A stretch of DNA of 64,000 nucleotides, from assembly GCA_963752475.1 (NCBI GenBank), contig CAVVYR010000006.1:64001-128000 (forward strand), read 5' to 3'. Below, piece after piece: positions 14,208 to 24,893 of this stretch. The notes below the pieces were generated by a model that was given only the letters and a program-made list of their open reading frames with translations, made no database searches and was not told where the DNA came from. The translations under genes and the position numbers were made by a program. How positions within the stretch are numbered: position 1 is the first letter of the stretch; each line of letters starts with the position of its first letter. This DNA is from an uncultured Chloroflexia bacterium (GTDB lineage Bacteria > Chloroflexota > Limnocylindria > Limnocylindrales > CSP1-4).

Positions 14208-15008
14208 TCAGTCTTCGTCTGAGTCGACCGACTCATCCGTCGCGGGTGCGACCGTGCCCTCGCGCCACTCGGTCACCGCCTGCCAGGCGATGCGTTGCAG
14301 GAACGCCGCGACCTCCGGGTCGGTCACGCCGAAGGTGTACGGATGGCCTTCGGGGCTGCGGTCGAAGAGCGTGGCGTAGATCGTCGCCGCCGCGAGATAG
14401 GCCCCCTCCCAGGTGGCATGCACCCGATCGGGATCCATCAATGCGACCTCCGGGCGTTCCGCCTCGGCCAGCTCGAACGCCAGGGCCGCCGGGGCCACGG
14501 TCGCTCCCAGTTCGGCCTCGACGGTGCGGTGAGCCTCGGCCACGTCGTCGTAGTCGGACCAGTCGTTGAAGCCGCGTGGCCAGGTCATGAAGAAGACGGT
14601 CTCGGCGCCGGCCTTGGTCACGACCTCATCGAAGAGCCGGGCGTGCTCCAGGAACGACTCGGCGTTGCGGGTGCGGGCGCCGGGCAGGTAGCCCTGCAAT
14701 ACGACCGTGTCGAACTCGCCCTGGCGGATGGCCTGCTTGGCGCCGTTGTCCCAGTGGTACTCGAGCGTGACGCCACCCTCGGTCAGGATCCGGCCGTCGA
14801 AGGCCCAGGGCGGGTCTTCCATGGAGGCGAACCCTTCGAGCTTCGCATCGAGCCCCCCGTGGCGCTCGGTGTGGCTGTTGCCGATGAAGAGCACGCGCTG
14901 GGGAAGCTGCTCGTCGGCCTCGGCCGCTTCCTGGGCAGCTGCGACCGAGGTCGTGGCGAGGAGGCTGATGGTGATGGCCGCAGCGAGGCAGGCACGTCCG
15001 GTTCTCAC
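14208..15008 (-). CDS. Secreted SGNH/GDSL-like hydrolase
   Basis: Signal peptide; VLFIGNSHT, VVLQG, FMTW, DRVHAT..GAYLAA; start estimated. Confidence 0.8.
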   Translation of the reverse strand: MRTGRACLAAAITISLLATTSVAAAQEAAEADEQLPQRVLFIGNSHTERHGGLDAKLEGFASMEDPPWAFDGRILTEGGVTLEYHWDNGAKQAIRQGEFDTVVLQGYLPGARTRNAESFLEHARLFDEVVTKAGAETVFFMTWPRGFNDWSDYDDVAEAHRTVEAELGATVAPAALAFELAEAERPEVALMDPDRVHATWEGAYLAAATIYATLFDRSPEGHPYTFGVTDPEVAAFLQRIAWQAVTEWREGTVAPATDESVDSDED

Positions 15009-15078
15009 GGCGGCAATGCTGCCATGTCTTGGCCGTACCATCCCAGCAGTACGAACGACGTATCCGGAGACCGACGAT

Positions 15079-16665
15079 ATGCGAGTCGACCGCATCGAGA
15101 TCGAGGCCTTTCGCGGCATCGATCGGCTGGTGCTGGACCTCGAGGAGTTGACGACGGTCATCGGCGAGCACGATTGCGGGAAGTCCTCGCTGTTGCGGGC
15201 GCTCGCACGCGTCTTGGGACCGAGCGAGCCGGACGTGCTCCCGGTCTTCGAGGTCGCCGACTTCCATCGACCGACCGATGTCGAGGCTGACCGCGCGACG
15301 ACGCTGGCGATCACGCTGGGGCTGCGCACCGGTGAGGACGACGACCTGGCCGATGGCTTGCCCGGCACCGATGACGGCGGTGTGAGCCTGCGCGTGCTCG
15401 CGAGCCGTCGCGCCCAAGGCGAGCCGACCACGACCGTGGACCTGCTCGATCGTGCCGGCGTGCCCCTCGAAGGCGCCGATGCAGCGGCGCTGCTCGAGCG
15501 CTTGCGACGACGCCACCCGGCGGTCATCGTCGCTGGCCCGCGTGCGGCCGTGGCGCGCGGCATCCGAGAGCGGCCCGAGGTGTCGAGCCGGCTGCGGTCA
15601 CTGTTGAGCGCGCGTCGCCGCGCTTCCGAGCCACTCACGTGGGACCAGATCGGCGAGGTGCGCGAGGACATCGTGCAGGCTGGCGGCCGGCTGGCCGATC
15701 AGATCGGACCGACCGTGGAGCGGCGACGCTCGGTGCTGGCCATGACCGATACGCCGCGGGCCCTGGTCACCGACCTCGCTGCGGCGCTCGACCCGGACGC
15801 CGAGGAGCAGCGCCGGGTGGCGGCGGTGTGGCTCCTGGCGGCGATCCTCGATGCGGTGCCCGAAGGTGGCCTCGGGGTCGAGGCCGAGCCGATCCTGCTC
15901 TTCGACGATATCGAGGCCAACCTCCACCCGACCTGGCTGGCGGCGTACGCGGCCGTGGCCTTCAACCTGCCCTTCCAGCAGATCGTCACGACGCACTCGC
16001 CGGAGGTGCTCGCATGGGTGCCCCTCAGCTCGCTGCGGCGCCTCGTGCGCCGAAGCGAGGGCATCGAAGCGCGGGCGGTGCGTACATCGCAGTACTCGGT
16101 GGGCGAGATGCGGCGGCTGACCTTCCACGTGCGCCTGAACCGAGGGTCCTCGTTCTTCGCTCGCGGCTGGATCCTCGTGGAGGGGGAGACCGAGGCCTGG
16201 CTGGTGCCAGAGTTCGCGCGCCTCGCCGGCGTCGAGCTGCCGGTGGAGGGCATCCGCGTCATCGAGTTCGCGCAGTGTGGCGTGGGCCCGCTGATGAAGC
16301 TGGCCGATGACCTTGGGATCGGCTGGGTCGTGCTGGCCGATGGCGACCAAGCGGGCAAGAGCTACGCCCGGCGTGTCGACGCGCATCTGGCGCAAGGCGG
16401 GGCAGGGGAGGTCGTGGTGCTGCCGGCACGGGATATCGAGCACTACCTCTTCAGGCAGGGCTATGCCGACGTCATCAAGGGTGCGGCCCGCGTCGGTGGC
16501 ACTCGCTCGGCAGGGAAGATCATCAAGGCTGCCACCGAGAAGGTGACCAAGCCCGGGCTGGCGCTGATCATCCTCGAGGCGGCCGACGAACGTGGGCCGG
16601 AAGGGGTGCCCGTGGTCCTGCGTGAGCTGGCCGAGTTGGCCCAACGCACGGCTCGAGGCGGCTAG
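15079..16665 (+). CDS. OLD-family ATP-dependent endonuclease (YbjD-like; ABC ATPase plus Toprim)
   Basis: IEAFRGI, Walker A GEHDCGKSS, Walker B LLFDDIEANLHP, VTTHSP, Toprim LVEGETE and ADGD; GGAG RBS. Confidence 0.88.
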   Translation: MRVDRIEIEAFRGIDRLVLDLEELTTVIGEHDCGKSSLLRALARVLGPSEPDVLPVFEVADFHRPTDVEADRATTLAITLGLRTGEDDDLADGLPGTDDGGVSLRVLASRRAQGEPTTTVDLLDRAGVPLEGADAAALLERLRRRHPAVIVAGPRAAVARGIRERPEVSSRLRSLLSARRRASEPLTWDQIGEVREDIVQAGGRLADQIGPTVERRRSVLAMTDTPRALVTDLAAALDPDAEEQRRVAAVWLLAAILDAVPEGGLGVEAEPILLFDDIEANLHPTWLAAYAAVAFNLPFQQIVTTHSPEVLAWVPLSSLRRLVRRSEGIEARAVRTSQYSVGEMRRLTFHVRLNRGSSFFARGWILVEGETEAWLVPEFARLAGVELPVEGIRVIEFAQCGVGPLMKLADDLGIGWVVLADGDQAGKSYARRVDAHLAQGGAGEVVVLPARDIEHYLFRQGYADVIKGAARVGGTRSAGKIIKAATEKVTKPGLALIILEAADERGPEGVPVVLRELAELAQRTARGG

Positions 16666-17192
16666 CGCGAGTACTCGCGGCGCATCTCCGCGAGAGCGGA
16701 ACCGATGTCCGCCATCGACACCGTGTCGATCGGACGATCGCCATATGTCGCCGCGGGCTCGGACGTCCGGGCCGGTCCCTCCTCGCGACCGAGTCCCATC
16801 GCGGTTGCCGCACGGTCGAGCGTGGCGTCGAGCGTGAGCAGCCGGCAGTCGGTGGCTTCTGCCGCGGCCAGATACGTCGCGTCGTACATCGACAGGCCGT
16901 GGGCACGTGCCAGCGTCAGCGCGCGCAGCCGGAGCGGCCGGCCCTGCGGTACCTCTTCGATCTGGAGCACCTCTGTCTGCAGCATGGCATCGAGCGCGAA
17001 CTCATCTCCGATGCTGGCCGTACGCGAAAGGCGGTTCCCGATCTCGAGCCAGATGAGGGATGGGGCAAGGAGCTGGATCCGTCCAGCGGGCACGTCGTCG
17101 ATGCAAGCATCTACCCAACCCGGCCGATCTTCGTCGAGCAGCCAGGAGATCACAGTCGACGCATCGATGACACGCTGCTCAGGTCCGTTCAA
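16662..17192 (-). CDS. PIN-domain (VapC-like) toxin with C-terminal extension
   Basis: VIDASTVISW, EIGN, LSMYDATYLA, LLTLD. Confidence 0.88.
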   Translation of the reverse strand: MNGPEQRVIDASTVISWLLDEDRPGWVDACIDDVPAGRIQLLAPSLIWLEIGNRLSRTASIGDEFALDAMLQTEVLQIEEVPQGRPLRLRALTLARAHGLSMYDATYLAAAEATDCRLLTLDATLDRAATAMGLGREEGPARTSEPAATYGDRPIDTVSMADIGSALAEMRREYSR

Positions 17193-17479
17193 TGGCTATC
17201 TCGGTCGGCGCGGATCCACTCGGCGGCGTTCGGCTCGTCGTGGTCGGGTGGCAGCGATGCCCGATAGCGTCGTCGCCATTCCTCGAGGCCTTCGAAGGCA
17301 GCGCGTCGCTGCTCGAGCAGCTTCTCGCGGTCCTGCTCGAGGCGCTCGGCCTCCTCCGGCGAGATGAGCACAGCCAACGGCTTGTGGTCACGTGTCACCA
17401 GGAACCTCTCGCCCGCGGAAGCTTCGTCCAGGATGCGCCCGAGCGAGCGGCGCATGTCCATGGGCGTGATGGTCTTCAT
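17189..17479 (-). CDS. Phd/YefM-family antitoxin
   Basis: MKTI...RRSLGRILDEASAGERFLVTRDHKPLAVL; 4-nt overlap with the PIN gene. Confidence 0.88.
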   Translation of the reverse strand: MKTITPMDMRRSLGRILDEASAGERFLVTRDHKPLAVLISPEEAERLEQDREKLLEQRRAAFEGLEEWRRRYRASLPPDHDEPNAAEWIRADRDSH

Positions 17480-17526: not shown

Positions 17527-18072
17527 CTAGCGGACTCGAAAGCTCGGGCCGTGGCCGGGGATGATGATGGAGGCCGTCTCGAGGATGCGGGCGCGGTGCT
17601 CCTCGACGGCCGCTGGATCGACGTCGAGGCCACTCCCCGGCGAGTCCTGCCAGACCCAGAGGTGCGTGAGCGCGGCCACGCCGTCGTCGGTCTCCACGAG
17701 CGTGGTGATGTCCTGCGGTGTGTGGCCGGGGGTCTCGAGCAGCTTGATGCCAGTCGAGAGTCGGACACCCTCTGCGGGGCGCGACGTCCATCGGTCGCGA
17801 ACGTACGTGGCCCAGTGGTCGTGGACCGTGACGTCCTCACCGAAGAGGGCGATGTTCATCGTGTGGTCGGGGTGGTGGTGGCTGAGGATGATGTCGGTGA
17901 CCTGCTCACGGTCGACGCCGAGTGCGGCCAGCGGGTCCAGGATCGAGGCCCGGGAAGGGACCATGCCGGGGTCCACGATGGCCGTTACGTCGCCATCGCG
18001 TAGCAGGGTCACCGTGCCGGCCACGCCATCGTCGTTGCCGTAGCCGTCGAACAGGACATCCAGTCGCGCCAT
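17527..18072 (-). CDS. MBL-fold metallo-hydrolase
   Basis: IVDPG, SHHHPDH, ETPGHT, IIPGHG. Confidence 0.88.
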   Translation of the reverse strand: MARLDVLFDGYGNDDGVAGTVTLLRDGDVTAIVDPGMVPSRASILDPLAALGVDREQVTDIILSHHHPDHTMNIALFGEDVTVHDHWATYVRDRWTSRPAEGVRLSTGIKLLETPGHTPQDITTLVETDDGVAALTHLWVWQDSPGSGLDVDPAAVEEHRARILETASIIIPGHGPSFRVR

Positions 18073-18207
18073 CGTCTCTCCTCGTCTCGGGGTCGCGGCT
18101 GACGGTACAGGTGGGGAGTCGATGTCACACGGTCGACATGTTCCGGTCCGACCCTGCACGTCTGGTCCGGACTCTCCCTTCCGGCCCACATCCATGAGGA
18201 GGACGAG

Positions 18208-18531
18208 ATGGCGAAGTTCGTGGTGATCTACTCGGGCGGCATGGGCATGGCAGCCGAGCCCGACGAGCGGCAGCGGATCATGGATGAGTGGGGCGCCTGG
18301 TACGGCAAGATGGGCGCGGCCATCAAGGACGGTGGCAGTCCCTTCGCGGCCTCGAAGAACTTCTCCGGCGCGGGTGCCGCGTCGGCCGATGGCCCCGGCG
18401 CGGTCCCGGCCACCGGCTACACCATCATCGAAGCCGATTCGCTCGACGCGGCGGCGGCTGCCTGCGCGGATCACCCACACCTCGGGCACGGCGGACAGGT
18501 CTCGGTCTTCGAGGCCGTCGACATGGGCTGA
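18208..18531 (+). CDS. YCII/DGPF-related protein
   Basis: MAKFVVIYSGG...WGAW...DGGSPF...TGYTIIEADSLDAA; GAGGAGG RBS. Confidence 0.8.
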   Translation: MAKFVVIYSGGMGMAAEPDERQRIMDEWGAWYGKMGAAIKDGGSPFAASKNFSGAGAASADGPGAVPATGYTIIEADSLDAAAAACADHPHLGHGGQVSVFEAVDMG

Positions 18532-18764
18532 GGCCTCGCTCGAGGCACTTTCTATCTGGTCGTCCGCTTGGGGCCCGTCAGACGACACGCCGCTGCGTCT
18601 CGACCAGGATCCAGTCAGCTCTGGGCATGATCCGCGCGCCACCCAGCCAAGAACGAACGGCGCCGGCAAGATTCTCGTCTAGCGGACCCACAGCGGACAC
18701 CTGAGTAGAACCTCGGGCACAGGCCTTGGGGAGGGGCGCTGTGCTACTTTCTACGCACTCCCGG

Positions 18765-18840
18765 GCGGGAGTAACTCAGTTGGTAGAGTGTCTGCTTCCC
18801 AAGCAGAATGTCGCGGGTTCGAGTCCCGTCTCCCGCTCCA
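18765..18840 (+). tRNA. tRNA-Gly(CCC)
   Basis: GCGGGAG/CTCCCGC acceptor stem, anticodon arm TCTGC-TTCCCAA-GCAGA, GGTTCGAGTCCC T-arm, encoded CCA; 76 nt. Confidence 0.97.
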
Positions 18841-19221
18841 CTTCCCCTTCCGAACTCGGGACGACACTCTGCTTGGTCGCCGAAACCCCGTCTCACATCG
18901 CCGCGTTCGATTCGCCGTGGACCTCGGGCAGACGGACCTCGAAGATGAGAAGAAGTGCAGCGGGTGGGCTCGCGCGAGGCGCTGCGGATGGTCCTGGAGC
19001 GCTTCGGGATCGTCCGCTTCCACGGCATCATCGGCGTACTTCTCGCCTGCATCCTAGCGAGGTCCATGCTGGAGACGCGTGGCCTCGCGGGGGCGTGGTT
19101 CATCCACTTGGTGCAGGACGAGCTGGTGTTCGGGTTCATGGCGATCGGCGCGATCACACCGGGGGAGGCTGAGCGGCAAGGCTCGCCTCGCCGCTGACGT
19201 GCGCTCGGGCGGCCGCCCGAG

Positions 19222-20073
19222 CTACTGCGGGCGGAGCGTGCCGGACCAGACCTGCCAGGCCAGGAGCGACTTCGCGACCAGGCTCAGCACCATGTACGTC
19301 TTCTCGCCGACCAGGTAATCCTTCCAGCGGCCGACCTTCCGGTACTGCAGGACCATGGTGATGGCGAAGATGTTGAAGGCGACGAACAGGCTGGCGATGA
19401 TCACGTACACGAAGCCCGGGATCTGGGCCTCTGGCGGCAGGCCTTCCTGGGCCGAGTAGGCCCACACGATCGAGAAGATCGCGATCCAAGGGACGATGCC
19501 GGCGATGCAGCCGAAGATGTAGTGCTTCCAGTCGACACGCTCGCCCTTCGTCAGCCGTCCCTCGTTGCCCGCCTCCATGCTCCATCCGAAGAGGTTCATC
19601 GCGACGTTGCAGCCGGCGATCGCGACGAGCGCCGGGAACTCGGTGATGAAGCTGAGGTACGCGATGGCGACGATCATGACCGTCGACGAGAACGCGTACT
19701 CCACCCACCGAAGCGGGTTCATGCCCCGGGCGAGCCAGGCCTCGTAGCGGCTGCGCAGGAAGAAGCCGGCGGATGCGTGGGCGATGGCGCTCATCAGGAA
19801 GAAGCTGGCGATCAGGTAGACCAGCGGGAACGAGACGAGCATCACGCTCGACGGCTCGATCCCGGTGAACTCGCCGTTCTCGATGATGGGGCGGGCCGTC
19901 GGCACGACGACCTCGAAGAGCACGGCAGTTCCGGAGATCAGGAGCATGAGGACGAACTGGCCCCCATGGGCAAAGACCAGGAAGCGGTTCCAGCGGTTCA
20001 GCGAGCGGGCTCGCTCAGGCGCGATGGCCGGAGGGGCCGTCGCGCTGATCGCAGTCGCAGCAGGGTTGGTCAT
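19222..20073 (-). CDS. heR: Heliorhodopsin
   Basis: TM1 His (VFAHG), TM2 His (SAIAH), NPLRWVEYAFSS, MNLFGW.ME, EKTYMVLSLVAKSLLAWQ with Schiff-base Lys; GGAGG RBS before ATG at 20073. Confidence 0.95.
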   Translation of the reverse strand: MTNPAATAISATAPPAIAPERARSLNRWNRFLVFAHGGQFVLMLLISGTAVLFEVVVPTARPIIENGEFTGIEPSSVMLVSFPLVYLIASFFLMSAIAHASAGFFLRSRYEAWLARGMNPLRWVEYAFSSTVMIVAIAYLSFITEFPALVAIAGCNVAMNLFGWSMEAGNEGRLTKGERVDWKHYIFGCIAGIVPWIAIFSIVWAYSAQEGLPPEAQIPGFVYVIIASLFVAFNIFAITMVLQYRKVGRWKDYLVGEKTYMVLSLVAKSLLAWQVWSGTLRPQ

Positions 20074-20516
20074 GAACGTGCCCTCCGAGATACGCGGTTC
20101 CATCCTGGTGTTCCTGCTCGGGAACGGTCGGCCGCGGGCCTTCGTCGCAGCGAGAAACGCCGGGACGCCAAAGACGGACTGAGGGGGAGTTCACGAACGG
20201 GTCAGCGCCTTGAGTTGGAGTGTAGCATCGGGTCCCTGGGCCTCCGCGAGCCGTGCCGGCGTTTCGTTGAGCGAGACTGCCCGCCACGGGTCCCCGATGG
20301 GCCGCGTGTACGCGGCAGCGAGGACAGGGATCTGGCGCCCTCCGTCGCCCTTGAGCGTCAGCGACTCGCCGTCGACGGTGTCCCGAGAGAGCCTGGTCAG
20401 GCAGGACTCATCCACGGCGCGCCGATCGCATCGTTGGCAGCCGGGGTGGTGCTCGTGCTGGGTCGCCTCGGACACGCCGTCAGCCTTGGCCGTCCGCGGA
20501 CTACGATGGTCGTGCG

Positions 20517-20669
20517 ATGAGGACCACCTTGATCACCGGGGACGGGCGCGGCTTGGGCCGGGCCACCGCGGACAAGCTCGCCGCCGCCGGCTACTCAGGG
20601 CCGGCCCATCGCACTGCCCCACCCCGGAGCCCATGCCTGACGTGTGCCAGACCGGTAGCCGCATCGTGA
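20517..20669 (+). pseudogene. N-terminal fragment of a short-chain dehydrogenase (SDR)
   Basis: MRTTLITGDGRGLGRATADKLAAAGY (TGxxxGxG) followed by unrelated sequence and a stop after 50 aa; TGA overlaps the next GTG. Confidence 0.65.
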
Positions 20670-21169
20670 CCGGCCAGACCGGCGGGTCTTCTGCCCGGTT
20701 CCCGACCGTCAGCGCCCGGACACTCCTGGGCGTGGAGCTGGCGCTGCCGCACGGATTTCCCGCCGAACGGACGCTGGCCGTCGTGGCGTTCCGGCAATGG
20801 CACCAGGCCCGGGTCGACCGCTGGATCGCCCGCGCCGTGGCGGATGGTGTGCCGCCGACACCGCGGGGTCTCACCGGCGTGCTGCCCGCAGCCGTCGTGG
20901 AACTTCCCGTCCTCGCTACCAGGTGGCGACCCGTCCGGCGCTTCATCGATGGTGGCATGACAGCCGGCATCGGTGACCCGGACGTCCTCGCCCGCACCAT
21001 CACGATCTACACGGACGTGGGCGGCTTCCAGCGGTCCCTTGCGATCCAGGGTGGCGAGGAGGTCCACGCGCTGGTCGTGACCCGCGACGGCGCCATCCTC
21101 GCCCGCGGCGCCGGCGATCCGCAGGACCGCGAATGGGACGACATCCTGGCCGCGCTGCGGGGGGCGTGA
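20666..21169 (+). CDS. Hypothetical thioredoxin-fold protein (ATP10-like)
   Basis: FPTVSARTL.G..LALP..F...TLAVVAFRQWHQ..VD.W...FIDGGM..GI...TIT.YTD. Confidence 0.65.
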   Translation: MTGQTGGSSARFPTVSARTLLGVELALPHGFPAERTLAVVAFRQWHQARVDRWIARAVADGVPPTPRGLTGVLPAAVVELPVLATRWRPVRRFIDGGMTAGIGDPDVLARTITIYTDVGGFQRSLAIQGGEEVHALVVTRDGAILARGAGDPQDREWDDILAALRGA

Positions 21170-21365
21170 GCCGCCGGGCCACGCGAGGCGGCCGCCCAGG
21201 GCACGGGAGCGATGCTGCTGCCACTGTCGCTGCTCTCAAGGGGAGCCGCGACGACGTCTGGGCGCTGGGCGTTTCGATGCAGGAAGCGAGCTGGCGCGAC
21301 TCTCTACCTGAGCCGCTTTCGCTCGCCCATCCACGCTCGTGCCACTACGCTCACGAGCGCGACAA

Positions 21366-21411
21366 TTCCCAAGCAGAATGCCGCGGGTTCGAGTCCCGTC
21401 TCCCGCTCCAC
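21366..21411 (+). repeat. Duplicated tRNA-Gly 3' half (attR-like)
   Basis: TTCCCAAGCAGAATGCCGCGGGTTCGAGTCCCGTCTCCCGCTCCAC; no 5' half upstream. Confidence 0.92.
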
Positions 21412-21543
21412 GTCCCCAGTCTGAGCTGTTGCTCAAGGTTGGCGAGTCACGAGACGCACACCCGCGACCCTCGAGTGGACGATCACCCACGCTTGCTCCT
21501 CGATCAGTTCGGGCCCGACGCTCGAGTGGCATATGCTCATCCG

Positions 21544-22062
21544 ATGCGCGACGTGATCGACGCCTTGGAGCGCCTCGCCATGGCCTGGTATCTCACCGGA
21601 TCGGAGGCGCTTGCGGCATATGGCTCGCCACGTCAGACCCTCGACACCGATGTCCTCGTCGACACCACGGAGTCCGGGTTGCGCAAGCTCGCCGCGGCGC
21701 TGGGCCGCGATTACTACTTCGCTGAGCCATTGCGGGTCGGGCCGCGGTTGATGGCCTCGGTGGTCGAGCGCTCGGGTGCCGGCAAGGTCGACTTCATCGT
21801 CCGCGACTCGGACTCGTGGGGTCGCGAAGCCATGGCTCGTCGTCGACGATGGGACCATCCCGTCTGGGGTGCAGGCTGGGTATCAAGCCTCGAGGATCTC
21901 GTGCTTGCCAAGCTCGAGTGGTCGGAGGGCACGTCAGAACTGCAGTTGCGCGACTGCGGCATGCTGCTGCGCATGAACTCGGATGCGGTTGACCGTGAGT
22001 ATCTAGCCCGCTGGGCCCGTGTCCTGGGCGTTCACGACCTCCTCCGTGAGGACCTGCCGTGA
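21544..22062 (+). CDS. Nucleotidyltransferase-fold protein (putative TA component)
   Basis: YLTGSEA..AYG.PRQT.DTD (GS plus DxD), KVDF, EDLVLAKLEW, QLRD. Confidence 0.8.
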   Translation: MRDVIDALERLAMAWYLTGSEALAAYGSPRQTLDTDVLVDTTESGLRKLAAALGRDYYFAEPLRVGPRLMASVVERSGAGKVDFIVRDSDSWGREAMARRRRWDHPVWGAGWVSSLEDLVLAKLEWSEGTSELQLRDCGMLLRMNSDAVDREYLARWARVLGVHDLLREDLP

Positions 22063-22468: not shown

Positions 22469-23644
22469 CTACGGCGGTGTGATCCACGTGAAGTGGGACC
22501 AGAGCGCCAGGCACTGGAGCGCCGCGAACGCGAGCAGCACTACCGCCCGACCGATCCGTGATCGCCGGTTGGCGAGGACCCAGGCGAAGGGCCAGGCCAC
22601 GGCCAGGTACCGTGGTGCCGACGTCAGCGTCGCGGCGAGCACCAGGCTCACGACGGCCAGGATGGCCACGAGCCAGTAGGCCGGACGGATCCGGTCTGGT
22701 CGGAAGTAGACGAATAGGAACAGGTGGAAGGCCACGAGGCCGACCCAGATCGGGCCCAGCGTGGACCCCGCCGAGGCCCGGGCCGGTTCGGCCAGCCATT
22801 CGGTCACGGCTTCTGACTGCGCATCGACCGCAGTCGCCAGGTACTCCGGCGTGTCCCAATACCCCTGCGCCGTGAACGGCGCCAACGGATCGCCCGTGAG
22901 CCACCACAGGTATGCAAAGAACCCACCAAGTGCCAGCGGTGCGAGCGCCAGGGGCATCCATGCCCTCGTAGGTCGGAGTCCCTCGCGCTGGACATACAGC
23001 ACCACCAGCGGCAGCACCAGCAGGATGCCCGGAGCACGCGTCAGTGCCGCCAGGGCCACGGCGATGCCCGCCATCCACGGATGCCGTGTCTCGGCGGCCA
23101 GGAACGCTCCGACCGCGAAGAGCAGGAACAGCGACTCCGAGTACGACATCGAGAAGGCGGCGGCGCCCGGCGCCAAGGCCAGGAACCACAGGCTCAGCAG
23201 TGCCCGCTCCGGCGTCAGGAACCTGACCGACAGGGCATACAGCGCGACCAGCGCCAGTGCGAAGGCGACGTTGGCCACGAGGAGCCCGGCGATCGGAACA
23301 TCCCCAGCCAGGGCCAGCGAAGTGACCTTGGTGACCGCCGGGTATAGCGGGTAGAAGGCGTAGTCGACGTACAGCCGGCCGTGGATCGAGGTCGAAGGTT
23401 CGGCGTGATACCCGTCCTCGGCGATGCCGAGGTGCCAGCTCCCGTCCCACGTGGTCAGGCTGGTGATGATCGGGCGTTCATCGAAGGCGACGCCTTCGGG
23501 CGGATCGGGCTGGGTGAGCTCCACCGAGACGGCGACGGCCAGTACCAGCAGCCGCGTGACGATGAAGAGGACCGCGATCCGCGGGAGCGCCCAGCGCCAA
23601 TCGATGCCCGATGGGCGCGGTGGTTCGACGACAGAGGAGCTCAC
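22469..23644 (-). CDS. GT-C mannosyltransferase (PIG-V-like)
   Basis: WDGSWHLGIAEDGY, AFYPLYP, YSESLFL, LTRAPG, PRY; multi-pass membrane protein. Confidence 0.88.
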   Translation of the reverse strand: MSSSVVEPPRPSGIDWRWALPRIAVLFIVTRLLVLAVAVSVELTQPDPPEGVAFDERPIITSLTTWDGSWHLGIAEDGYHAEPSTSIHGRLYVDYAFYPLYPAVTKVTSLALAGDVPIAGLLVANVAFALALVALYALSVRFLTPERALLSLWFLALAPGAAAFSMSYSESLFLLFAVGAFLAAETRHPWMAGIAVALAALTRAPGILLVLPLVVLYVQREGLRPTRAWMPLALAPLALGGFFAYLWWLTGDPLAPFTAQGYWDTPEYLATAVDAQSEAVTEWLAEPARASAGSTLGPIWVGLVAFHLFLFVYFRPDRIRPAYWLVAILAVVSLVLAATLTSAPRYLAVAWPFAWVLANRRSRIGRAVVLLAFAALQCLALWSHFTWITPP

Positions 23645-23876
23645 GTGCGCCGAGTGTAGGCGGCGTGGCATCCGTCGCCAATGACCGAAGGTCAGGCCCG
23701 AGCCTCCGATTCCGGCCTAGGCGGGGCAAGCGTCGCCCCCGGTGTCTACGCGCCCATCGGATCCGGCAGGCCGCGCTCTGCCAGTAGGGGTGCCGCGGAG
23801 GCGCTCGACCGCGCCGACCTGACTCCCGACGATGTTCGGCCGTGGCTGGCGACCCGGAGGTCACGGTAGCCGGCGG

Positions 23877-24083: not shown

Positions 24084-24893
24084 CTACTCCTCCGGAAGGA
24101 AGTCCCCACAGAAGCCGTTGCTGAACCGTTCGGCTGCCAAGAAGGCCTGCAGGCCCAGCCACTCCACGCCGGTCGCGACGAAGACGGCGATGCCGACCGT
24201 CGTACCCAGACTGACCGAGCTGCCGCGGCAGACGGCCTCGCGGTTCTCTGCTGCCCACTCCTGCGCCGCCACCACGGTGGCCTGGGCGTCGGTGACGGCT
24301 CCTTCGAGCCTCATGACCGCCTCGTCGACGGCCTCCTCGAGATCGGCCTCCTCGATGGCGGCCTGTGCTTCGGCCAACGCCTCGTCCACGGCGGCCCCGA
24401 AGTCGACCTCCTCGACGGCCGTGAGCGCCTCGGCAGCAGCCTCCTCGATGGCACCCTGGATGTCGACGTCACTCGGCAGCTCGAACTCATCGATCGCGGT
24501 CTGCGCGTCGGCGATGGCCTGGTCGACAGCCTCCTGGGCGTCGGCCAAGGCGGCATCGACGTCGAATTCCTGCGCGCTCGCGAGGGCGTCATCGAACGCC
24601 TCCTGCAGGTCCACCTCGCGGAGGTCTTCGAGCGTGTCGTCGACGGCGGAGGCGAGCTGGTCGAGCAGCGTCTGCTCTTCCTCGGGCTGGTCTGTGGTCA
24701 TGTCGACGAGCGCGGACTCGACCGACGAGATGCAGGTCTCGAGCTCCGTCGGATCGTCCGAGGTGGCAGCACAGAGGTCGCTGACGAGCCCGAGGCCGAT
24801 GGCTTCTGGAAGCGGCGACTCGGCCTGGGCAGCCACGGAAGCCGGCGTGACCGCGATGAGGAGACCGAGCAGGAGGGAGAGTCGTGTCTTCAT
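24084..24893 (-). CDS. Secreted acidic Ala/Glu/Asp-rich helical-repeat protein
   Basis: Signal peptide; repeated D-L/F-x2-A-x-D/E-x-ALA-x-AQ units; Cys pairs at both ends. Confidence 0.75.
   Translation of the reverse strand: MKTRLSLLLGLLIAVTPASVAAQAESPLPEAIGLGLVSDLCAATSDDPTELETCISSVESALVDMTTDQPEEEQTLLDQLASAVDDTLEDLREVDLQEAFDDALASAQEFDVDAALADAQEAVDQAIADAQTAIDEFELPSDVDIQGAIEEAAAEALTAVEEVDFGAAVDEALAEAQAAIEEADLEEAVDEAVMRLEGAVTDAQATVVAAQEWAAENREAVCRGSSVSLGTTVGIAVFVATGVEWLGLQAFLAAERFSNGFCGDFLPEE

Follow-up and report, generated by a model that had tools for sequence, protein, structure and literature searches.

Heliorhodopsin on a probable non-autonomous integrative cassette at a tRNA-Gly gene of an uncultured Limnocylindrales bacterium

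The tRNA-Gly(CCC) site and the 2.6-kb segment behind it

We analysed a heliorhodopsin (HeR) gene that lies downstream of a tRNA-Gly(CCC) gene in a member of Candidatus Limnocylindrales (Chloroflexota). The stretch under study, 64,000 nucleotides that we call the window, covers positions 64001-128000 of the 863-kb contig C6 in assembly G000 (4.25 Mb). G000 is a metagenome bin with a completeness of 88.8% and a contamination of 5.8%, and all of the genomes compared with it are metagenome bins as well. An initial annotation of the window had pointed to a 46-bp direct repeat with one mismatch that runs from the anticodon loop of the tRNA past its CCA end and brackets the HeR gene. We find that the repeat extends to 52 nt with 2 mismatches (96% identity) and that its first 46 nt indeed hold one of them. 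Its first base corresponds to tRNA position 32, where the anticodon loop begins, and the two copies lie 2570 nt apart from start to start. The tRNA is the only one detected by ARAGORN in the window, and an Rfam scan of 18600-21600 returned nothing besides it. The features of the site and of the enclosed cassette are as follows (positions in the window, strand in brackets; G numbers denote genome assemblies; ORF, open reading frame; GC3, GC content at third codon positions).

18765-18840 (+): intact tRNA-Gly(CCC) gene (ARAGORN; Rfam RF00005, 71 bits); attL once joined to the element's copy of the 3' half
18796-18847 (+): direct repeat copy 1, attL core, from the anticodon loop to CCA plus 7 nt
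18850-18881 (+): tRNA-side arm (P'), CGAACTCGGGACGACACTCTGCTTGGTCGCC; it accompanies the HeR cassette in G014, G050, G054 and G049
18955-19197 (+): 80-aa membrane ORF, probable Rce1/CPBP-like protease stub; no Pfam match for the G000 copy
19222-20073 (-): HeR, 283 aa, intact (Pfam PF18761, E 2.7e-76; GC3 0.93)
20191-20475 (-): 94-aa ORF upstream of HeR, no known family in Pfam and NCBIfam scans
20517-20666 (+): short-chain dehydrogenase (SDR) remnant, a pseudogene with a deletion joint at 20595/20596
20633-21169 (+): 178-aa ORF without a family; DNA identity 95-96% to four other copies and 87% in G053
21292-21365 (+): distal arm (P) with a CGAC-CTCTACCTG motif, CTTTCGCTCGCC and a hairpin (21334-21341/21352-21359), from an alignment of 33 junctions
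21366-21417 (+): direct repeat copy 2, attR core, a displaced tRNA-Gly 3' half that is not a tRNA gene (ARAGORN, Rfam)

The HeR protein matches positions 1-242 of the 242-position PF18761 profile at 256.6 bits (cut-off 26.7) and the NCBIfam equivalog NF038020 at 252.9 bits (cut-off 100). It aligns end to end with HeRs of solved structure and keeps the SLVAKS lysine stretch; its last-helix lysine (LSLVAKSLLAWQ) is aligned to LSLVAKSALAWQ of the solved chain 9ljj_A and corresponds to the retinal-binding residue that forms the Schiff base in HeRs. The cellular role of heliorhodopsin is still debated.

In essence, the intact HeR is the only working gene of the 2.6-kb cassette. The SDR remnant aligns with no more than positions 1-26 of adh_short, at an E-value (2.9e-4) that misses the cut-off. 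In other copies of the cassette the first ~28 codons of the SDR survive together with an apparent C-terminal piece in another frame, and an alignment of the copies indicates that a further 181 bp are gone from the G000 pseudogene between 20595 and 20596. The 80-aa ORF has a 123-aa homologue in G053 that weakly resembles the end of an Rce1/CPBP protease (PF02517, E 0.011, below the cut-off). For the 178-aa ORF and a 215-aa homologue, the best Pfam match has an E-value of 0.098 (PhoR, chance level) and NCBIfam returns none at E <= 1. Other cassette copies carry a 157-aa ORF upstream of HeR and on the HeR strand (L041:11705-12175; L numbers denote loci). The initial annotation had listed HeR, an SDR stub and an ATP10-like gene between the repeats. 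The first two are borne out by Pfam and NCBIfam (for the SDR by the opening 26 positions of adh_short), the ATP10-like assignment is unsupported at Pfam E <= 10 and NCBIfam E <= 1, and the CPBP-like stub and the 94-aa ORF have to be added to the list. Pfam and NCBIfam scans found no recombination, conjugation or mobilisation genes among the called cassette ORFs; beyond Pfam matches, genes were called with a GC3-based ORF picker that misses genes.

One mark of a tRNA island made by a tyrosine integrase is present at this site, namely the repeat of the tRNA's 3' part at the far end combined with the intact tRNA at the near end. The other mark, an integrase gene beside an att end, is absent here and present in the elements of G169, G281, G210, G248 and G118 described below. 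The initial annotation was correct that no integrase lies in or near the segment: there is no tyrosine integrase (PF00589) match anywhere on C6.

HeR cassettes in the genus and related HeR genes beyond it

We searched 49 genomes of the genus with a 7-kb query around the site, fetched 16 regions and ran blastn with the tRNA on them. The HeR part is carried at a DNA identity of at least 86% by eight of the 49 genomes, G000 included. The cassette is found in G014, G050, G054, G049 and G053; G048 has the HeR part only, on a 6-kb contig, and G013 has a broken HeR gene with no recognisable flanking repeats. The copies become homologous at the repeat boundary (query 2296-2300), also in genomes with different neighbouring cassettes. 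The position of the HeR cassette in the array of displaced tRNA 3' halves varies: it comes first in G000, second in G050 and in G053 (where a toxin-antitoxin pair is fused in front of it), and no earlier than third in G054. The cassette sits inside a long contig in G000 (863 kb) and likewise in four more carriers, whose contigs measure 245 kb to 1.06 Mb. Parts of it are also covered, with separate variants, by short contigs of four public runs, one from each of four studies.

The cassettes resemble one another more closely than do the genomes that carry them. Pairwise DNA identity of the cassette, a value that covers intergenic DNA and the SDR pseudogene, is 89.5-98.8%, versus 80-87% for the syntenic core, for which we used two syntenic segments and one RpoB domain. 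Values for individual pairs are given below, with two core values where available.

G000 and G014: cassette 93.7%, core 84.5/84.9%
G014 and G054: cassette 97.9%, core 82.0/86.9%
G014 and G053: cassette 95.0%, core 81.8/83.2%
G000 and G053: cassette 89.5%, core 80.8/81.9%
G014 and G050: cassette 98.8%

The distribution is also patchy. Core identity to G000 is as high or higher in G013, G005 and G056 (84-89%), and the cassette is absent from G005 and G056 despite the shared flank and tRNA. The genes of the two flanks in the window are these.

14707-16662 (+): left flank, OLD-family nuclease (DUF2813 and TOPRIM; Pfam)
16662-17192 (-): left flank, PIN toxin (Pfam)
17189-17479 (-): left flank, Phd/YefM antitoxin (Pfam)
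17527-18669 (-): left flank, MBL-fold protein (Pfam)
21433-22062 (+): right flank, 209-aa ORF without a family (Pfam)
22469-23671 (-): right flank, PIG-V-like mannosyltransferase (Pfam)
24084-24893 (-): right flank, conserved 269-aa gene at which synteny with G013, G056 and G054 resumes

The left-flank genes precede the tRNA in G013, G056, G005 and G053 as well, with DNA identities of 72-82%. On the other side, the DNA 3' of this tRNA is different in every genome compared, and no sister genome offers a clean empty site. The right-flank gene at 21433-22062, for instance, is separated from the tRNA by 7-23 kb, or placed on a different contig, in G054, G059, G044 and G007, and G056, with the same left flank and tRNA, has no repeat within the next 13 kb. 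Logan contigs from four runs contain no joint from ~18840 to 21366-21417; such contigs cannot reveal rare forms, and the result is uninformative either way.

G000 encodes a second HeR outside the window (C6:700368-701159) that is 53% identical to the cassette HeR. In a tree of HeR proteins, from which rows with fewer than 240 aligned residues or with stops were excluded (among them L131 and the G013 pseudogene), the second HeR groups with those of eight other genus members, the usual HeR of the genus, and the cassette HeR belongs to another major clade. The set of closest HeRs comprises 80 loci, five of which duplicate DNA already included and were not counted as independent. Six further loci, L110-L114 and L131, encode HeRs with 91-96% protein identity and 88-94% DNA identity. 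The RpoB domain of their genomes is only 76-86% identical to that of G000 (that of L113 was not found), versus 94-99% within the genus. The cassette HeRs and five of these six form one well-supported clade of 13 rows (SH-aLRT 97). Judging from these alignments, we conclude that the HeR gene has crossed genus borders.

What surrounds these more distant HeRs differs among loci. A CPBP-like stub adjoins HeR at L112, where the stub region is 77% identical to that of the cassette, and at L114. At L111 (1718-7003), the 93%-identical HeR lies in an array bounded by a 37-nt hairpin-like repeat that ends in GGGCGCGCCA and occurs four times in direct orientation. A tRNA lies within 6 kb of HeR at 9 of the 26 loci L110-L135, against a rough expectation of ~4; these loci include non-independent kin, and we do not count the figure as evidence. 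Rows L156, L180, L184 and L144 of the HeR clade come from contigs titled Acidobacteriota, Deferrimicrobiota, Binatota and Actinomycetes, which reflects either mis-binning or wider transfer.

Arrays, junction arms and integrases at tRNA genes

The HeR cassette is one of many at this tRNA. In genus relatives, cassettes at tRNA-Gly(CCC) stand in tandem, are 0.8-6.6 kb long and mostly end in a ~75-nt arm followed by a tRNA 3' half. By blastn, G050 has five displaced 3' halves (tRNA positions ~31-77) downstream of the tRNA, delimiting cassettes of 1.06, 4.29, 0.96, 0.81 and 1.0 kb; G054 has four plus one at a contig end, G014 three, G053, G013 and G049 two each, and G005, G021 and G002 one each. 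None was detected on the stretches fetched from G056 and G009. A search with arm plus core gave at least four matches in 16 of the 49 genus genomes, against a baseline of 2-3 tRNA-Gly genes, and arm-bearing units are present in 12 of the 49. The cargo of these arrays consists of PIN/VapBC pairs, extracytoplasmic function (ECF) sigma factor modules, hypothetical proteins and HeR. A single PF00589 gene, truncated and located in G005, was found among 157 ORFs scanned on the array loci, and none of 17 PF00589 matches falls on an array contig of G014, G050, G054, G053 or G013. Many cassettes open with an ECF sigma gene followed by an unnamed gene (L049:4970-10255, L052:5446-7861, L054:10225-10785 and L046:16465-17025), as if sigma/anti-sigma modules were a common cargo.

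When 33 tRNA ends and displaced halves are aligned, conservation reaches beyond the tRNA part. Left of most displaced halves is the ~75-nt arm, which exists in two variants and consists of CGAC-ACCCTAACTG, CTTTCGCTCGCC and then a hairpin. A second arm, bearing the same GACACCCTGNCTGG-type motif, frequently follows the tRNA or displaced half on its right side. A profile built from 18 arms finds the distal arm of the window once in G000 (E 1.8e-17) and gives two weak matches at other tRNA arrays. A degenerate regular expression for a 14-nt arm motif was uninformative, with 7 matches in G000 of which one lies at the cassette and the others are unrelated. We also considered the junction unit as a structured RNA and rejected this idea: Rfam recognises only the tRNA, and 21290-21413 has a folding z-score of -0.61, with 58 of 200 shuffles folding at least as well.

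Units of this kind occur at other tRNA genes of G000. At tRNA-Gly(UCC) on C29 (234956-240499, L056), a 151-aa integrase relic is accompanied by a repeat 5.5 kb away that has an arm of this type too. At tRNA-Gln(CUG), 3' halves form an array over two contig ends (C10:18947-25838 and C29:6973-18062) with an arm like that of tRNA-Gly; two of the arm-plus-half units in this array are named "tRNA-Gln" and "tRNA-Leu" by ARAGORN, both of them pseudo-tRNA calls. At tRNA-Thr(CGU) (C1:192458-215152), a partial copy lies 22.6 kb away with an integrase fragment in between.

A phage origin was examined in IMG/VR and set aside. An exact 40-nt pattern of the tRNA half occurs in 0 IMG/VR contigs. A 28-nt pattern retrieves 20, eight of them with a partial tRNA-Gly, and a similar arm is seen only in L080; tblastn with the G005 integrase gives no match at E <= 1e-5 on any contig retrieved with the 28-nt pattern. 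L080 is a contig of 44% GC in which a tRNA-Gly 3' half follows an arm (151-270) with the motifs and spacing seen in G000, whose GC is 68%. A 351-aa tyrosine integrase, 26% identical to those of the genus, is encoded 1.3 kb from this half (L080:1476-2528).

Across the entire G000 assembly there are three PF00589 matches. Two are on C14, 42 kb apart; all relatives searched have this pair, which resembles XerC/XerD. The third is a fragment on C1. Serine recombinases (PF00239) have no match in the G000 assembly. In G005, an integrase directly adjoins tRNA-Gly(CCC) and heads a 6.4-kb island closed by a 48-nt repeat; its reading frame stops after the HxxFRH box, with the C-terminal end in no frame. 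A further integrase relic is on contig C19 of G021. Relatives of the G005 integrase in the genus are 40-50% identical, ~310 aa long and Xer-like by NCBIfam, scoring far under the Xer cut-offs. In 10 of the 12 matches listed they adjoin tRNA genes (Pro, Arg six times, Ala, Val and Gly). In an order-wide count over 401 genomes at E <= 1e-55, which includes the unpublished G273 and G294, 115 genomes have a match to this integrase (114 of the 358 in the taxonomic family), and matches occur in 21 of 44 genera. All of the 11 new loci listed lie at a tRNA: five at Gly(CCC), three at Gly(UCC), two at Lys and one at Thr.

The five integrases at Gly(CCC) in sister genera (G169, G281, G210, G248 and G118) have complete C-termini (HPHxFRH ... 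GWxSxxMxxRYGAS). In G169 and G281, integrase-headed elements of 16.5 and 12.2 kb extend from the tRNA to a 47-48-nt repeat of positions 32-78 of the same tRNA, and the extent of the core repeat is the same in the cassette. Both elements encode Replic_Relax, and that of G281 also encodes HTH_17 proteins and a 761-aa TrwB/HerA-like ATPase. Replic_Relax (PF13814) had no match in G000, a negative of no value as the control matched in no genome. HTH_17 is the fold of many excisionases. This gene set is that of a small integrative conjugative or mobilizable element (ICE/IME-like). The tRNA-side arm of the window matches that of G169 in 27 of 31 positions at the same offset, and in 500 shuffles the score was never reached for either G169 or G281; against G210 there is no match above chance (105/500 shuffles). 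Additionally, 29 of 32 positions agree between the distal arm of G169 and that of the cassette located before HeR in G050 (0/500 shuffles).

Origin and spread of the HeR cassette

Based on these data, we propose that the HeR segment is a non-autonomous integrative cassette, similar to a cis-mobilizable element (CIME), that has spread horizontally; we give this reading a probability of roughly 0.68. It draws on the anatomy of the segment, the arrays, the excess identity of the cassettes, their patchy distribution, the integrase family with its association with tRNA genes, and the match of the tRNA-side arm. The founders would be ICE/IME-like elements of Limnocylindrales whose Xer-like tyrosine integrase recombines the site of the element with the part of tRNA-Gly(CCC) from the anticodon loop to the 3' end. 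Every such insertion would restore the tRNA and shift the old 3' half downstream, so that repeated insertions stack cassettes, each made of a tRNA-side arm, cargo, a distal arm and a tRNA 3' half. Because the HeR cassette has kept both arms and has no integrase, excisionase or transfer gene, it should move only with an integrase supplied by a related element, either alone or as a composite with the helper element (accretion). From the sequence comparisons we infer that an integrase of this family acts on the cassette arms and that the cassette can excise and be mobilised in trans. It has spread among at least seven species of the genus since their divergence, probably by the helper integrase or aided by homologous exchange at the conserved junctions. 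In G000, the cassette places a foreign HeR paralogue, the second of the genome, beside the resident one. It is probably not mobile there now, unless the bin has missed a helper.

The initial annotation had offered two readings, a decayed island and a minimal non-autonomous element. Of these, the second is the better supported, by the kept arms, the family of cassettes without integrases, the excess identity and the integrases in sister genera. Its suggestion that such an element could be a route for the horizontal spread of HeR agrees with the near-identical cassettes across species and the HeRs in other genera, and the tRNA-Gly-targeting integrase that it proposed to look for elsewhere exists in sister genera, intact, at Gly(CCC) and with a matching tRNA-side arm. 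It also held that its proposal would be refuted if relatives carried HeR at this position without the repeat and HeR followed the species tree. We find instead that G056 and G005 share the left flank and tRNA and have no HeR there, and that HeR disagrees with the relationships based on RpoB.

Several observations weigh against a mobile cassette. G000, at 88.8% completeness, has no intact integrase of the family, only the relic on C29 and the fragment on C1. The G005 copy is the only integrase on the genus array loci scanned at tRNA-Gly(CCC), and its C-terminal part, the one with the catalytic tyrosine, is missing. The integrases of the family are two-domain and Xer-like, which leaves the question of who reads the 75-nt arm, and the distal arm of the window does not match that of G169 above chance (42/500 shuffles). 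Finally, L111, L112, L113 and L131 share little beyond the HeR gene body (93-94%) and have no tRNA-Gly repeat within 6 kb, from which it follows that HeR also moves by routes other than the cassette.

The alternative that survives best, although we think it unlikely, is homologous recombination after DNA uptake, with the tRNA and ~150-nt junction units or neighbouring cassettes serving as arms and a site-specific step only at the origin of the array. Junction units are indeed 76-94% identical over ~85-130 nt between genomes, and no integrase is at hand in the carriers. However, the homology starts at the repeat boundary although the neighbouring cassettes differ, and the tRNA-side arm matches elements that bear an integrase. 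Homologous exchange between species that are ~82% alike is, in addition, inefficient with arms as short as 100-150 nt and only 80-90% identical.

Still less probable, in our judgement, is a fossil scar, in which an autonomous island entered tRNA-Gly once, lost its integrase and was then inherited vertically with many losses while HeR was held by selection. The absence of an integrase in G000, the integrase relics in G005, on C29 of G000 and on C19 of G021, the decayed cassette genes (SDR remnant and CPBP-like stub) and the broken HeR of G013 without recognisable surrounding repeats would all fit such a history. Yet the contrast of 94-99% identity in the cassette to 80-87% in the core spans a pseudogene and spacers, which are beyond the hold of selection; the position in the array varies by genome; and relatives that are closer in the core and share the flank lack the cassette. 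Moreover, many small cassettes without an integrase keep both arms, an outcome that independent clean deletions would rarely give. An artefact of assembly or binning, in which the repeat joined foreign DNA to the tRNA or a piece of contig is common to several bins, is hardly credible even though all genomes are bins, G000 has 5.8% contamination and several carriers come from one large survey, since the repeat is merely 46-52 nt long, the cassette lies inside long contigs, its copies differ by 1-10% and stand among different neighbours, and short contigs from four runs cover parts of it independently.

The kind of element that we propose is itself known. CIMEs and site-specific accretion were defined for streptococcal islands of the ICESt1/ICESt3 type. 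Like a CIME, the HeR cassette lies between putative attL and attR sites of an integrative family, has no genes for integration or transfer, occurs in tandem at one site and is expected to depend on a helper integrase; unlike the streptococcal CIMEs, the cassettes here are 0.8-6.6 kb long, stand up to five in a row at a tRNA of Chloroflexota and have no helper in the same genome. Integron cassettes offer a second comparison. The arrays resemble them in being small, often single-gene units at one fixed site with a conserved recombination unit, toxin-antitoxin members and a recombinase encoded outside. In contrast to integrons, there is no integron integrase beside the array, the junction is a tRNA 3' half plus arm and not an attC hairpin, and genes lie on both strands; the family integrases reach 58 bits with the integron integrase model (cut-off 265), and the pairing of IntI with attI is not seen.

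Two systems of tandem islands are also close. The sections of the Dehalococcoides report that we draw on describe multiple islands arranged in tandem behind one t(m)RNA gene, ssrA, each ending in a repeat of its 3' end and carrying niche genes (PMC3146451). Fifteen of them have no integration module and were proposed to be cis-mobilizable, and a conserved motif directly precedes each repeat (PMC3146451). The likeness thus includes the phylum, the tandem arrangement, the upstream motif and the members without an integration module, as far as that part of the report goes (PMC3146451). The same part describes a tmRNA target, a 20-bp repeat and a CcrB-like serine recombinase (PMC3146451), whereas we find tRNA-Gly, a 46-52-nt repeat from the anticodon loop and an Xer-like tyrosine integrase, and a cargo of HeR, toxin-antitoxin pairs and ECF sigma modules unlike that of the Dehalococcoides islands. 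In Prochlorococcus, the account of tycheposons, in the portion used here, has tyrosine integrases targeting a few tRNA genes, with later insertions pushing older ones inward (10.1101/2020.12.28.424599). It further reports islands with scattered partial tRNAs, fragmented integrases and "plug-in" trait cargo (10.1101/2020.12.28.424599). Unlike the HeR cassette, tycheposons are described there as bearing their own integrase and often replication genes (10.1101/2020.12.28.424599), and the intact relatives that we find are ICE/IME-like, with Replic_Relax and a TrwB/HerA-like ATPase. New here are the HeR cargo, the lineage, how small the cassettes are, and the occurrence of one arm at several tRNA targets and in a 44%-GC viral contig. 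At the level of titles and the opening of abstracts, we found no report of HeR on an att-bounded island; two papers, PMC7701988 and PMC12747079, mention heliorhodopsin alongside mobile-element terms.

We tentatively suggest, as a possibility that we ourselves regard as doubtful, that Limnocylindrales and perhaps other soil monoderms have an integron-like system of gene capture. Here tRNA genes (Gly-CCC, Gly-UCC, Gln-CUG and others) would be docking sites for tiny cargo-only cassettes (toxin-antitoxin, ECF sigma, HeR) that share the ~75-nt arm across tRNA targets and the 44%-GC viral contig and are shuffled in trans by Xer-like integrases on ICE-like elements. If such a system exists, HeR would be an exchangeable trait that stands by itself, independent of any partner gene. 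That HeR is nearly the sole working gene of its cassette, was added beside another HeR and has been exchanged across species and genera suggests a benefit that is self-contained. The same exchange means that the distribution of HeR cannot be read as vertical descent. More generally, the arrays show how uncultured Chloroflexota with few integrases may build a flexible gene pool; no plasmids or phages were seen in the bins. Integrases of the G169 and G281 type, together with their att sites, are concrete candidates for bench work.

A minor observation concerns the G014 copy of the locus, where an IS21-type pair, an IstA-like protein with a Mu-transposase C-terminal domain and IstB, is encoded at L041:13705-15695, beside the repeat that heads the HeR cassette.

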